Source: an uncultured delta proteobacterium
GTDB taxonomy: Bacteria; Myxococcota_A; Polyangia; Fen-1088
NCBI GenBank assembly: GCA_963758155.1
Contig: CAVWUP010000006.1
Location: 22,399-86,398 of the forward strand
DNA length: 64,000 bases
Direction of reading: 5' to 3'
Part shown: one piece after another, positions 27,058 through 33,000 of the stretch
Layout: each line of letters begins with the position of its first letter
Numbering within the stretch: position 1 is the first letter of the stretch
Program-made: the position numbers and the translations under genes
The notes under the pieces: model-generated
Told to the model about the DNA's origin: nothing
Seen by the model: the letters and a program-made list of their open reading frames with translations, nothing else
Databases searched by the model: none

Positions 27058-30000
27058 TCAGCCGACGACGTCGCGAAAGGCACCCAGGGCCTCGTCAGGC
27101 AGCCCGCCCGGGATGCGCGCCGTGCGGTAGCCCTCGACGGTCAAGTACACCTTGCCGTCGCTGTCGCGCACGCGCATGTCGAACGACAGCGCATCCTGGG
27201 ACGAATTGGGCTGCAACTCTGCCACCATGGGTTTGCCATTGGGGGTCGGATCGAACACGGTCACGCGCTTCACCACCGAGGGCAATCCCATCTGGCCGGT
27301 CTGGCCGATCTCCCACACGCCCGCGGTCTGGAAGCACAGCTCGACCAGGCGCGGCCCCACCATGCTGGTGCTGTTGGGGTTGGTGGTGTCCGCGGGCAAC
27401 GGTGTCCGCATGGTCCCCACGACCTGGCCGCTCGACAGCCGGTTGACCATTTCCAGCACCCGATAGGCCGGACCGTGGAAGTACACGCGGTAGATGTCGT
27501 CGTGGCCGATGCCACCCACCGGACCCGCGCCATCCACGGCCGTGCGCTCGCTTTGCCCCTGGCCCTGCTCCAGCACGACCACGCCGGCAAAGTGCAATTT
27601 CTCCTCGGGCTCGCGCCCCACCACCACCTGCACCGACGACAGGGTCATGTGCACCCGCACCCGCCCGTCCGCGCCCAACAGCGGACGCGCCCGCACGATC
27701 ACGGAACGCGGCTCGTGGCGGTAGTACTTCATGGCCGCCAAGAAACGCACGTTCTCGAGCGCCGCCACACGAAGAGAGGGGGCCAGCAACCAGGCCGCCT
27801 CGGCAAAGGTCTCCAGGCCCATCACGCCTGGCAAAACCGGAATGCCGTCGATCGCGTGATCGTAGAGGAACGGCTCCACCTTGGGGTCGAGCCTGATCTC
27901 GGCCGTCAGGCCCTGGTGCAAATCGAAGCTGACGTTGTCGAAGGGCAAAGGCAGCGCCCTTTCGCGAGCCCGCGCCACCAGGCTGCCGTCGGGATCGATG
28001 CCGCCATCCTTGTCAAAGGGCTCCATCAGGATGCCCAGCTTGTGCCCCACCACGGCTTCGCCGGAGAAGCCCGCCAGAAGCGCATGGCGGATCACGGGCA
28101 AGCCCTCGACTGGCGAAAGCATGTCGATCCCTGCGCGCTTCATGATCTCGGGAATGCTTCCGCGCGTGGCCATGCCGATGCCGCCCCAGGCGGTCCAGTC
28201 GAGCGCGATGCCCAAGGAGCCGAGACGCGACGCCGCCCACCAGGACAGCGTTTTGCACATGAAATCGTTGCCCGAGCTGTAGTCGGCCTGCCCTGCGTTT
28301 CCAAATCGGCCAGCGACGGACGAGAATCCGACAATCGCCTTCACGTCCATGTCGCGAGTCGCGGCCAACAGATTGAAGAGTCCGTCGGCCTTGACCCGGA
28401 AAACCAGATCGAATTCCTCGACCGGCTTGCGGTCGAGCGAGCGGCTGCGCTCGAGTCCGGCGGCGTGCAGAATGACGTCGATGCGTCCGCTCTCGGCGCG
28501 GATGTTGTCCACCACCGCCTTGACCGCTGCCCCGTCCAGCACGTCGACCTGGCGGTAGAAGGCACGACCACCGGCTTGCTCCACCCCGCGCAGGGCCTCC
28601 AGGATGCCGGCCTGCCGTTCCAGATCGAAGAGCTTCTCCTCGACCTGCGCTGGCGTGGCGCGACCCTTCTCGGCCTTGATGCGCTCGAAGACCTCGCGCT
28701 TGGCCGCCTCGCGATTTTTGATCACGGTTTCCAGGAGCGCGTGCTCGCTCTCGGGCGGCATGGCGCGTGCGTCGAGCAGGTAGAACGTGCCGCGCGACGC
28801 AGCCGCCAGATCGCGCACGATGGCCACGGTGATGGCCCCGGCCCCGCCGGTCACGGCGAACACCGTGTTCTGGTCCAACTTGACCGCCGGCTTGGCGTCG
28901 GTCGGAACCGCTTGCATGACTTCCAAGCCGACCGTCACGCGCAGGCCGGCTGCATAGCCGATCTCCACTGCGCCCGGATCGCGCTCGGTCTCGTCGAGCA
29001 GGGCGCGCGCGATCGCTTCGGCCGAGGCGTTGTCCTCGAAATCGACTGCCTTGGCCAGCAAATCGGGTCGCTCGCGTCGCAGCGTCTTGGTGAATCCGGT
29101 AACCGCGCCACCCACAGAGTTGCTGGCGCCAGCCGCACCGTAGCCGTGCTGGCCTCCCATGCGCGTGGCGCTGATGACGAAGCAGCCAGGATTGAGCGTT
29201 TCATACAATCCCCGCGCCGCCCCGTGCAGGAGCAAGACGCGGTCGCGATATAGCTTGCGGAACTGGACCAAATCGATGTCCGACAACGGCGCCGAGTGGT
29301 CGAGTGCAGGCAGGAAGTAGAGGCCCGTGACGTTCCCCGCCTGAGCCCAGGTGTGCAAAGCCGCCTCGATCTCGGCGCGTTCGGGACGCGCGTCGATGCG
29401 CAGCACCTGCACGCCCCGACTTTCCAATTGCTCACAGAGCAGCTTGCCCGCGCCTTCACCGTCAGCCACCACCACCACACGGCTGCCCTTTTCCAGACGC
29501 ACACCAGTCTTCTTGCACGAATCGAGCGGAGGCCGCAGGGTCACCACCGGGCGACGCAACAGCCCGCTCACAAAGGGGCTGGGCCCATCCGCCACAACAA
29601 CCGCCGGTGCTGCCACCGTCGCTGCCGCTGCCACAGGCGCAGGTGCAGGCGCCGCAGAAGCGACGGGAGCTGCCATCGGCAAGTACTTGTTCACGAAACC
29701 GATGACGTGGCGAAGGGTCGGGTAGTCGCGCAACTTCACGTCGTCCTGGCGCGGAATATTGAATGTCTCCCGCACCAGCGCGAACACCTCGGCTTGCTTG
29801 ACCGTGTCGATTCCCAGATCAGCCTCGAGATCCAGGTCCAGCTCCAGCATGTCGCGCGGATATCCGGTCTTCCCCGCCACCAATTCAAGGACTTTCTCTT
29901 CGATCGGATCTCCCGAGCCCGCTGCCGGGGCCGGGGCCGCAACCGGAACCGGACTCGAAACCGGAGCCGAGACCGCTGCCGGCGCTGCGGCCGCCAAGTC

Positions 30001-33000
30001 GGGCCGATTCGTCTCAACGAATCCGATCACATGACGGAGCGTCGGATAGTCCCGCAGCTTCACGTTGTCCTGCCGCGGGATACTGAATGTCTCCCGTACC
30101 AGCGCGAAGACCTCCGCCTGCTTGACTGTGTCGATTCCGAGGTCCGCCTCGAGATCCAGGTCCAACTCCAGCATGTCGCGCGGATAGCCCGTCTTCTCTG
30201 CCACCACTCCCAGCACTTTCTCCGCCACAACATTTCCCGTGGCCGCGACGGGCGCGTGCGAAGCACGCGGTGGGCTGGCCACGCTGGGGCCTTCGACTGG
30301 GAAAACCGACGCCGGGGCCAGCGCCGAACCCGGTGCCGCCGCCAGATCCGGCCGATTCGTCTCCACGAACCCGATGACATGACGGAGCGTTGGGTAGTCA
30401 CGCAGCTTCACGTTGTCCTGCCGCGGGATATTGAATGTCTCCCGCACCAGCGCGAACACCTCTGCCTGCTTGACTGTATCGATTCCCAGGTCCGCCTCGA
30501 GATCCAAGTCCATTTCCAGCATGTCGCGCGGATAGCCGGTCTTCTCTGCCACCACTCCCAGCACCTTCTCCGCCACAACATTTCCCGTGGCCGCGACGGG
30601 CGCGTGCGAAGCACGCTGTGGGCTGGCCACGCTGGGGCCTTCTGCTGGGGAAACTGTGGCCGTAGCCGCAGTCGTGGTCGTGGCTCCAGCCAAATCCGGC
30701 CGGTTCTCTTTCACAAACCCCACCACATGTCGCAAGGTCGGGTAGTCGCGCAGTTTGAGCGTGTCCTGCCGCGGGATATTGAATGTCTCCCGCACCAGGG
30801 CGAACACCTCGGCCTGTTTGACCGTGTCGATTCCCAGGTCCGCCTCAAGATCCAGATCGGGATCCAGCATGTCGCGCGGATAGCCGGTCTTGTCGCTGAC
30901 CAGCTTGAGCACCGACTCCATGACCATTTCGCCGCCGGGCGCTGCCGCGACCGTCGCGACCGCCGCAACCGCCGGAGCCGCTGAAGGTGGAACTACCGTC
31001 GCCGCAGGCACGGGCGCGGGCTGGGGCGCAGGAGTCGTCGCAGCTGCCGCTGGTGCAGTCGGCGTCCGCAGCACCGGCATTGCCGGCATCGGCGCCCCGT
31101 CAACGCTCGCGCGCGGGCCGGTGCCCATGGTCCAGGTCGATGGAGCCGGCTCGCGCGCCGGCTGGCCAATGTCCTTGATGCGCAGGGTACGCTTCTCGAC
31201 TTCCAGGACCGGCGCTGGGTAACCGGAGATATCGGACAACCAGCGTTGGTAGGCGACCCGATCCGACACCCGTTCTTCCAAGCCATCAATGCGACGGAGC
31301 ACAGTCATCGCGATCTGTGAACCGAAGCCGGCGGCCAGTCGCAGGGCGTAGCGCACGGGATAGTGCCCGCCCTTCGACAGATTGAGCGTGCCCAATTCAG
31401 GATCGGGCTCGCGGTAGTTGGGCACCGGCGGAACCACCTGCTTCTCCAGAATCTTGACCGCCACTGCGTCCTCCACGCCCACGCCCATGGGATGACCGGT
31501 GAAGCCCTTGGTGTTGCACACCACCAAATCGTTGGCGCTGCTACCAAAGGTCTTGCGCAGGGCGAACACCTCGGCCGAAGCACTACCTCCGCGCGCCGGT
31601 GTGTAGGTCTCGTGCGAGATGAAAACCAACTCGCGTGCCATGGCATGCCGATCGATGCCGTGGCGCTGCTCCACGCCCGACACCAGTCGCTCCATCACGC
31701 CCTCGATGTGATCCACATCCAGACGGGTCCCGTGGAAGGCGCTGTTGGCGAACGTGCTGCCCAGCACCTCGCACAGTCCGCGCATCCCGCGCTCGCGCAG
31801 CGAATCTTCCGACTCCACCACCAGGCCGCACGCGCCCATGCCCAGCAACATTCCGTTGCGCCGGCGATCGAAGGGCAATGCCGCCTTTTCCAGCACGTCC
31901 TCGGTGGTGGCCGCTCCACTGGCCAAGAAGCCAGCGCCCATCCATTCCAGCAGGCTGTCCGAGGTGACGTCGTCGGCGCCGATGATGAGCACGCGGCGGC
32001 AACGGCCGGCGCGGATCCAGTCCTCGGCCATGCCCACGGCCATGGTGGTCGAGGCACAGGCCGCGTTGACCTGAGTGTTGGGACCGCGGATGCCGAGCAA
32101 TTCGGCAAACTGCGCGTGACCCATGGCGAGGATGCGGAAGAGGAAACGACGATCGAATTCGTAGCTCTGGCGACCAGTTCGCTGGGAGAAGAAGCGCGTG
32201 ATCTCGTCGACCAGGTTGTCGTAGCCCGGGAAGGCCGAGGCGAAAATCACGCCGGTCTCGTCGGCCATGGCAGCCGGAAGCCGCCAGCGGTCGGGCAGGA
32301 AGCTGCCCGTGGTGGTGCGACGATAGTGGCGCACCAGCGGAATGCCCGCGTCGCGCAGGGCTTCGATGCCCGCGGCGATGGCCAGCGCCGTGGTGATGTC
32401 CCAGGCTTCCACGCGCTCGCGCGGAACCCCGAATTCCTCGACGATATCGAAGATGCCGCGGCGGCCAGCCAGGCGAATGACCTCGTCCACCGACTTGATG
32501 GGATCCAGGCTGGGCTCGCCCACCTCGCGCTTGACCAGCCGAACGACGTTCTTTTCCACCATGCGGGCGCGGAAAACATGCGGCACCGGATCGATGAAGG
32601 AGTCACCGCGCAGAATGCGATCCACGTTGCCGTCGTCGAACACGTGTTGCTTCTGCCCGGGCAAGCCCAAGGCCGCGCCGGACACGACGATGGATCCCGA
32701 GCGCGCTTCTGGCAGCGCCGGCGGACCAGCGCGGCGGCCGCCGTAAAGCGACATGCCCTCGTCGAGGAAACGGGCAAATAGTCTTCCCAGTCCGTCGTAG
32801 TCGGGCTGGCCTGCGGACGTGCGAATCGGACTCTCACTCATGGTCTGGGTTGCTCCGTGCGAAGAAGTCGTAATGGAAACGGCGGGCGCAGTGGCGATCT
32901 CAGCGGCGGGCGACGTCGCTGCAAAAGCGGCGGCAAGACTTTCGGGCCGGGGAATGCCCGCGGCGTAGAAGCCGCACATGGCCTCGTGGAAGGAACGGAC

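Follow-up and report, generated by a model that had tools for sequence, protein, structure and literature searches.

The four tandem acyl carrier protein (ACP) domains of a PfaA-like 'Type R' synthase from an uncultured member of the Myxococcota carry threonine at the position where carrier proteins bear the serine that receives the 4'-phosphopantetheine arm. The synthase is encoded in a 64,000-nucleotide stretch of DNA (GenBank assembly GCA_963758155.1, contig CAVWUP010000006.1, positions 22,399 to 86,398 of the forward strand), which was analysed at its full length and is hereafter referred to as the window. Comparison with related loci revealed that this threonine is a trait of the whole gene family and not a local oddity, and the sequence evidence points to the threonine hydroxyl as the probable phosphopantetheine acceptor, which would be loaded by a dedicated Sfp-type phosphopantetheinyl transferase (PPTase). 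To our knowledge, the enzymology of fatty acid synthases (FAS), polyketide synthases (PKS) and non-ribosomal peptide synthetases takes serine to be the universal acceptor of carrier proteins, and this serine is hard-wired in motif definitions.

The Type R cluster was described as a pfaA homologue encoding the domains ketosynthase (KS)-MAT-chain-length factor (CLF)-ACP(3-6)-ketoreductase (KR), followed by a PPTase gene, and was reported from Koribacter, Solibacter, Elusimicrobium and Roseiflexus (Acidobacteria, Chloroflexi and Elusimicrobia) with no known product (Shulse and Allen, 2011, PLoS One, PMC3098273). A literature search retrieved no later report of a Type R product; nor did it retrieve any report of a threonine-linked phosphopantetheine, most subscription journals lying outside the search, so that an earlier report of the latter is possible. 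The cluster type itself dates from the 2011 description, and the new part is the putative threonine acceptor.

Threonine at the attachment site of the carrier domains

Four GIDT sites are present in the synthase, at residues 1640, 1756, 1872 and 1980, within a 24-residue motif common to all four carrier domains, and the carrier region forms a 348-nt tandem array (Tandem Repeats Finder). The Pfam PP-binding model (PF00550) matched the carriers in three stretches with 77.1 bits, against a cutoff of 20.8, and a family hidden Markov model (HMM) recovered all four domains and found no other carrier domain in the window. When one repeat was aligned by HMMER to solved ACPs (PigH, CurA, Aquifex and Plasmodium FAS), its threonine fell on the serine of the DLG(V/L/A)DS motif. 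Likewise, an AlphaFold2 model of ACP2 (pLDDT 80) displayed a four-helix bundle in which helix II begins at the threonine, and the top Foldseek matches of this model were FAS ACPs, with TM-scores of 0.77-0.87 and root-mean-square deviations of 1.5-2 Å. The acceptor serine that PF00550 places in a (D/H)S(L/I) context was not found in any of the four window domains, nor in any of 245 domains from relatives, all of which have threonine instead.

These results bear out a first-pass annotation, made from the window sequence without database searches, which had placed threonine at the serine position of all four carriers and had suggested alignment to PP-binding models. Its coordinates and codons match those of the re-read open reading frame (ORF), the threonine codons being ACG, ACA, ACA and ACG from ACP1 to ACP4, preceded by the aspartate codons GAC, GAT, GAC and GAC; and the intact 8.7-kb ORF on which it relied is a single frame of 2,894 residues (27058-35742, minus strand). 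It had also argued that threonine is kept at the protein level and does not reflect a copying artefact, in agreement with the pairwise comparison of the window repeats, which differ at many synonymous positions (dS 0.38-1.04, dN/dS 0.03-0.21) and are long-standing duplicates under purifying selection. The possibility that the true attachment serine lies elsewhere in each repeat, which the same annotation had named as the observation that would overturn its claim, was rejected, as no position of the repeat has serine in more than 22% of 158 distinct domains of the family.

Conservation of threonine across the synthase family

A scan with an alignment of the second KS, run on one genome per GTDB species, retrieved at least 586 loci or species genomes. 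The closest locus among the matches listed belongs to a Myxococcales metagenome-assembled genome (MAG; L002) with 86% identity, and among the related loci are one from a Roseiflexus MAG (L010) and many from Acidobacteriota and Chloroflexota. From these, 80 loci of Chloroflexota, Acidobacteriota, Myxococcota, Actinomycetota, Verrucomicrobiota and Proteobacteria were surveyed for carriers with the HMM. Threonine occupied the site in 245/245 complete carrier domains, present in 1-6 copies per locus, and serine was never found; this invariance had not been visible to the first-pass annotation, which had suggested a survey for GIDT(V/I)K variants. Furthermore, a protein search with a single repeat yielded 869 matches, with threonine in all 124 motif instances within the best 120. 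Both TGYP and D(L/M)EADLG[IV]DTVKQAE are invariant over the 158 distinct domains.

Codon usage at the site is diverse, with ACG at 114, ACC at 96, ACT at 21 and ACA at 12 of 243 sites. Every threonine codon is a single substitution away from a serine codon, and serine was nevertheless found at 0/243 sites, which suggests that the system discriminates threonine from serine. The whole synthase of the window, compared with that of L002, has a dN/dS of 0.15.

Variation in carrier placement was observed in Anaerolineae-type loci (L036, L042, L043, L045, L046, L067, L068 and L074), where 1-3 Thr-type ACPs are located between the first KS and the acyltransferase (AT); this sub-lineage has Thr-type ACPs after the second KS as well, and is devoid of the upstream acyl-CoA dehydrogenase (ACAD) gene described below. 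Two of its members, L067 and L068, have a second PPTase gene upstream, more similar to those of Ser-type clusters. Stand-alone Thr-type ACPs were considered as a separate context and rejected on the sole case checked, a short ACP (P0031) at L082, which is a fragment of a synthase of this family that frameshifts have broken up in an error-prone assembly; a close relative of the window, L001, displays the same fragmentation of its synthase.

Serine-type relatives and boundary cases

Metagenomes were scanned for the serine version of the motif (DLG[IV]D-TCN-VKQAE, where TCN encodes the serine), which was found in 12 stretches, all of them within Pfa-like synthases that lack the second KS and have the organization AT-ACPn-KR-dehydratase (DH), often followed by a PPTase and a KS-CLF. 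The nearest Ser-type carriers have TGYP and the 15-residue motif in common with the threonine family. An exhaustive search with a carrier profile returned 6,859 representatives, of which 4,128 had E<=1e-10. The best 150 comprised 111 all-Thr, 31 all-Ser and 8 mixed proteins, the all-Ser proteins corresponding to the classical LGIDSIKRVEIL and LGIDSIKKAQLF types.

Two loci are located at the boundary between both types. The synthase of the first, L095, is of the KS-AT-KS type and has Ser-type carriers (P0363), and no ACAD gene adjoins it, and the second, the Type R locus L096, encodes a protein (P0324) in which the second KS is followed by a Ser-type carrier and then by Thr-type carriers. Both are candidate evolutionary intermediates of the serine-to-threonine switch, and since a Ser-type KS-AT-KS synthase and a mixed array exist, serine and threonine occupy the same functional slot. 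Some relatives carry additional, degenerate ACP-like domains in which D, Q, G or A takes the place of the attachment residue, and those with D, Q or G are also devoid of VKQAE. Taken together, the threonine sits in the ancestral attachment slot, and this site is retained or lost along with the helix-II recognition motif. Identity between a Ser-type and a Thr-type domain never exceeded 60%, so that recent reversions are absent. A crude neighbour-joining tree of 235 carrier domains, built on short sequences, was unresolved, with a minimum of 11 Ser/Thr changes, and was not used as evidence.

Completeness of the synthase and its conserved cassette

The synthase exceeded the cutoff of the NCBIfam PfaA model TIGR02813 by a small margin (1027.4 against 1010.1 bits, in three stretches). 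Its AT has the HAFH motif, which in PKS denotes malonyl specificity, and its KR has the Rossmann and tyrosine motifs, as seen by reading the sequence. In the second KS, C220, H368 and H408 (numbering of the 542-residue query) are invariant across an alignment of 37 homologues, and the matches of this domain are FabF-like. Because the Cys-His-His triad is invariant in these homologues, the internal 'CLF' of Type R synthases appears to be a real, functional-looking ketosynthase and not a chain-length factor. Since the KS, AT, second KS, KR and DH motifs are all intact, the synthase is catalytically complete, and the four threonine domains are its only carriers. An exact-sequence look-up of the protein in a public gene index returned no record. 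A 562-residue ORF runs antisense to the ACP array (29296-30984, plus strand), with a G+C content at third codon positions of 0.73 compared with 0.81 in the real frame; it results from the high G+C content and is not a gene.

The gene order ACAD, synthase, PPTase is conserved. The ACAD gene lies directly upstream of the synthase in 53/68 loci, and among the 58 loci with enough flanking sequence, a same-strand PPTase gene was found 3' of the synthase in 51, within 2.5 kb in 42 and further downstream in the other 9. Loci with the PPTase gene 5-6 kb downstream include L057, L060, L064, L065, L073, L078 and L081. At L082, which is outside the 58 loci counted here, the genes for biotin carboxylase, biotin carboxyl carrier protein and carboxyltransferase (acetyl-CoA carboxylase) are placed between the synthase and the PPTase gene, an arrangement reported for Koribacter.

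The intact PPTase of L002 (227 residues), aligned to residues 85-162 of Sfp, has equivalents of H90, D107, E109, E151 and K155, within the motifs SISH, GADLE and WSGKEAVLK. Moreover, 49 cluster PPTases form a clade with the signature WSaKEa.lKal..GLR.DTR, which is absent from the PPTases of Ser-type clusters. A pocket-enlarging change beside the Mg2+ ligands (GADxE, in place of GIDIE in Sfp) was considered and discarded as inconsistent, the residue being A, I, C or V. The nearest named family of the ACAD is the electron-transferring flavoprotein (ETF)-dependent acryloyl-CoA reductase AcrC, and the ACAD may play a reductive role in this enzyme, which has no enoyl reductase (ER). Genes for ETF alpha and beta are located upstream of the ACAD gene at L082, a hint that an ACAD/ETF pair could supply the missing enoyl reduction. 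None of the NCBIfam models is dedicated to this type of carrier, second KS, PPTase or ACAD.

Proposed modification of the carrier domains

We propose that the four domains are genuine working carriers of an iterative 'Type R' secondary-lipid synthase resembling polyunsaturated fatty acid (PUFA) synthases, in a lineage that would have replaced the cofactor serine at the N-terminus of helix II by threonine and then fixed it. The threonine hydroxyl would most probably receive the 4'-phosphopantetheine of CoA, giving O-phosphopantetheinyl-threonine, through a dedicated Sfp-type PPTase whose gene lies immediately 3' of that of the synthase. The resulting thiol would then serve the malonyl-specific AT, both Cys-His-His ketosynthases, the KR and the DH in the manner of PfaA. 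The linked PPTase would be adapted to the secondary alcohol, and we may speculate that threonine was selected for insulation from the housekeeping enzymes AcpS or AcpH, or for a linkage that resists beta-elimination. A functional threonine site is favoured because these are the sole carriers of a catalytically complete synthase, because the helix-II motif of the serine relatives is kept, and because the PPTase gene is linked. The more specific claim that O-(4'-phosphopantetheinyl)-threonine is a natural, undescribed modification, made by a threonine-selective clade of Sfp-type enzymes orthogonal to AcpS and perhaps to AcpH, is in our judgement evenly balanced between being right and wrong.

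Several observations weigh against this proposal. The main counter-evidence comes from E. coli ACP(S36T), for which 4'-phosphopantetheine modification was reported to be impossible and no complementation was obtained (PMC3340395), indicating that the canonical AcpS rejects threonine. In addition, no PPTase gene was found within ~6 kb in 7/58 loci, and no simple active-site substitution separating the linked PPTases from those of Ser-type clusters was found, the variable residue of GxDxE being A, I, C or V. Finally, the PPTase gene of the window itself is broken: DNA alignment with the intact genes of L002 and L003 revealed three 1-nt insertions, at ~26956, ~26839 and ~26462, as the first-pass annotation had anticipated on calling this gene disrupted.

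The window PPTase fragment keeps the catalytic motifs IGADIETVE and IWSAKEAVLKAIG, and in restored frames its dN/dS relative to L001 is 0.17; given this value, the gene either turned into a pseudogene very recently or contains a local sequence error. A general assembly error is unlikely, since all other long genes of the window are intact, and a local one may account for the indels. L002, L003 and most other loci have an intact orthologous PPTase gene, and the break in this genome cannot be the cause of the threonine. The synthase of this genome may be in the apo form or may rely on another PPTase, or else the indels may be sequence errors.

Alternative explanations

The first-pass annotation had left three options open, namely modification on threonine, a different modification or a non-canonical scaffold, and an inactive assembly line. 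The functional threonine site is favoured among them, and the inactive assembly line fails to explain threonine throughout the family.

Consistent with the behaviour of E. coli ACP(S36T), which shows that canonical PPTases refuse threonine (PMC3340395), and with the degenerate ACP-like domains of some relatives, the threonine domains might be unmodified ACP-like scaffolds for docking or oligomerisation, the acyl chain being carried elsewhere. We regard this as unlikely, given that neither the synthase nor the cassette has another carrier, and that a KS-AT-KS-KR-DH enzyme needs a carrier thiol for its catalytic cycle. The helix-II recognition motif does not vary and is common to the Ser-type relatives, the PPTase gene is linked in most loci (51/58), and the copy number of 1-6 resembles that of the PUFA ACP arrays, in which the number of carriers scales throughput.

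A second alternative retains the phosphopantetheine and dispenses with any adaptation of the enzyme, in that threonine would be neutral, historically fixed and loaded by any Sfp-type PPTase of broad specificity. The coexistence of Ser- and Thr-type domains in one array (P0324/L096) and the lack of a clear pocket signature in the linked PPTases agree with it. Nevertheless, reversions from threonine to serine would then be expected among the 243 sites across several phyla, and none was seen; even the nearest Ser-type domain does not surpass 60% identity to a Thr-type one, and the PPTase linkage is tight. These data make neutrality a distinctly doubtful account.

Nothing direct speaks for a different group on the threonine, whether by direct O-acylation, by phosphorylation or through the phosphoribosyl-dephospho-CoA arm known on the ACPs of citrate lyase and malonate decarboxylase, apart from the fact that it would account for the choice of threonine over serine. 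The linked transferase is a Sfp-type PPTase with all the Mg2+- and CoA-binding and catalytic residues, no transferase of the CitX/MdcG type and no kinase is conserved in the cassette, and the AT has canonical motifs for transfer of malonyl to a thiol, so that this explanation is improbable.

Lastly, that the cluster of this genome is inactive or decaying, with the threonine as part of its decay, agrees with the three insertions in the PPTase gene relative to L002 and L003, and with damage specific to this gene while the other long genes remain intact, and it is very improbable because threonine, found in 245/245 domains of 80 loci and in no fewer than 111 proteins among the best 150 representatives, predates the events in this genome, because decay would leave unexplained a trait that is fixed, and kept by purifying selection, in at least 586 species, because the 8.7-kb ORF is intact with a dN/dS of 0.15 relative to L002, and because the value of 0.17 for the PPTase in restored frames relative to L001 implies an inactivation that is very recent or indels that are errors.

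Comparison with known systems

The window gene resembles the Type R cluster in being a single pfaA homologue with the same domain order and four ACPs, an order shared by 80 related loci, and in having a PPTase gene downstream (26308-27048), although the latter is frameshifted three times in the window. Conversely, the main text of the 2011 description contains neither 'threonine' nor 'acyl-CoA dehydrogenase' (PMC3098273); it labels as CLF the internal domain that here keeps Cys-His-His, it does not include the conserved upstream ACAD and the C-terminal DH, and it does not list Myxococcota, the phylum of the window genome, for Type R.

The engineered E. coli ACP S36T carries the identical change at the equivalent position of this fold and is reported to be non-functional (PMC3340395), whereas the natural threonine carriers are under purifying selection beside a PPTase of their own.

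With PfaA (TIGR02813) the synthase has in common the near-identical tandem carriers between AT and KR, the TGYP...LGID motif and the C-terminal PS-DH, and the best NCBIfam match of a single window ACP is the ACP region of PfaA. However, PUFA ACPs read LGIDSIKRVEIL, with serine, where the window motif has threonine, and the window synthase has an extra inserted KS and an ACAD gene in the neighbouring position. No PfaB, PfaC or PfaD partners (AT, KS-CLF-FabA-DH and ER) were found near the synthase or elsewhere in the window.

The enediyne PKS (PKSE; KS-AT-ACP-KR-DH-PPTase) is likewise an iterative, ER-less type I enzyme related to PUFA synthases, with its PPTase fused at the C-terminus. It differs from the window synthase in having a single Ser-type ACP, one KS and the fused PPTase. 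Enediyne accessory genes are presumably not present at the window locus.

Coordinates and neighbouring genes

The positions of the synthase, its domains and the cassette genes are given in Table 1.

Table 1. Positions in the window of the synthase gene, its predicted domains and the adjoining cassette genes (aa, amino acids)
Feature	Position	Strand	Basis
PfaA-like 'Type R' synthase, 2,894 aa, KS-AT-second KS-4 x ACP(Thr)-KR-PS-DH	27058..35742	minus	ORF translation, Pfam, TIGR02813
First KS (KS1), aa 11-474, active-site Cys in TTDAACASS	34321..35712	minus	Pfam ketoacyl-synt, Ketoacyl-synt_C, KAsynt_C_assoc
Acyltransferase, aa 605-900, GHSLGE and HAFH motifs	33043..33930	minus	Pfam Acyl_transf_1 5.4e-39
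Second KS, aa ~1010-1560, Type R hallmark, Cys-His-His kept	31063..32715	minus	Alignment, FabF-like matches
ACP1, Thr1640, codon ACG at 30823-30825	30688..30930	minus	Family HMM, GIDT site
ACP2, Thr1756, codon ACA at 30475-30477	30340..30582	minus	Family HMM, GIDT site, structure model
ACP3, Thr1872, codon ACA at 30127-30129	29992..30234	minus	Family HMM, GIDT site
ACP4, Thr1980, codon ACG at 29803-29805	29668..29910	minus	Family HMM, GIDT site
Ketoreductase, aa 2295-2520	28183..28860	minus	Pfam KR 2.3e-25
PKS-type dehydratase, aa 2609-2880, HxxxGxxxxP (HAIDGIPVLP)	27103..27918	minus	Pfam PKS_DH_N, PS-DH
Cognate Sfp-type PPTase, four frame segments	26308..27048	minus	ORF pieces, Pfam ACPS 6.8e-16, tblastn vs L002
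Acyl-CoA dehydrogenase-family gene, cassette member, upstream	35848..37512	minus	Pfam ACAD domains

The synthase gene is accompanied by the ACAD gene, by the remnant of the PPTase gene, and by genes for a protein with Sushi repeats, a mannosyltransferase-like protein and a glutamate dehydrogenase. The Sushi-repeat protein (23950-25581, minus strand; 543 residues) has two N-terminal Sushi/CCP repeats (Pfam 1.6e-28), a domain unusual in bacteria, and its gene sits between the PPTase remnant and a PMT/PIG-V-like mannosyltransferase gene (22220-23428). Elsewhere in the window, the region 17736-21629 (plus strand) encodes a NuoF-like flavoprotein (715 residues) followed by the large subunit of a [FeFe]-hydrogenase (574 residues), in the arrangement of a bifurcating hydrogenase, and a LanB-type lantibiotic dehydratase of 982 residues with Lant_dehydr_N and Lant_dehydr_C domains is encoded at 48479-51427 (plus strand), possibly within a lanthipeptide or thiopeptide-like cluster. 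At 1151-2093 and 3394-3795 (both plus strand) lie a toxin-antitoxin pair of the nucleotidyltransferase (MNT)/HepT kind and a gene of the DUF5615/PIN-like type, and a type I restriction-modification HsdM methylase gene at 7764-9209 (minus strand).

Implications

Annotation tools or curators that require serine could score the threonine carriers as inactive. If the proposed reading is true, a threonine-linked phosphopantetheine would constitute a new post-translational modification and its transferase a new class of PPTase specificity, and a large family that relies on threonine and never went back to serine would extend the chemistry of phosphopantetheinylation. The carrier and its PPTase would also represent a ready-made orthogonal pair for labelling and pathway engineering. 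Within the organisms themselves, such orthogonality between the threonine carriers and their PPTase would insulate a lipid pathway from primary metabolism, and the threonine carriers provide a tangible starting point for the biochemistry of the 'Type R' cluster, which is widespread.

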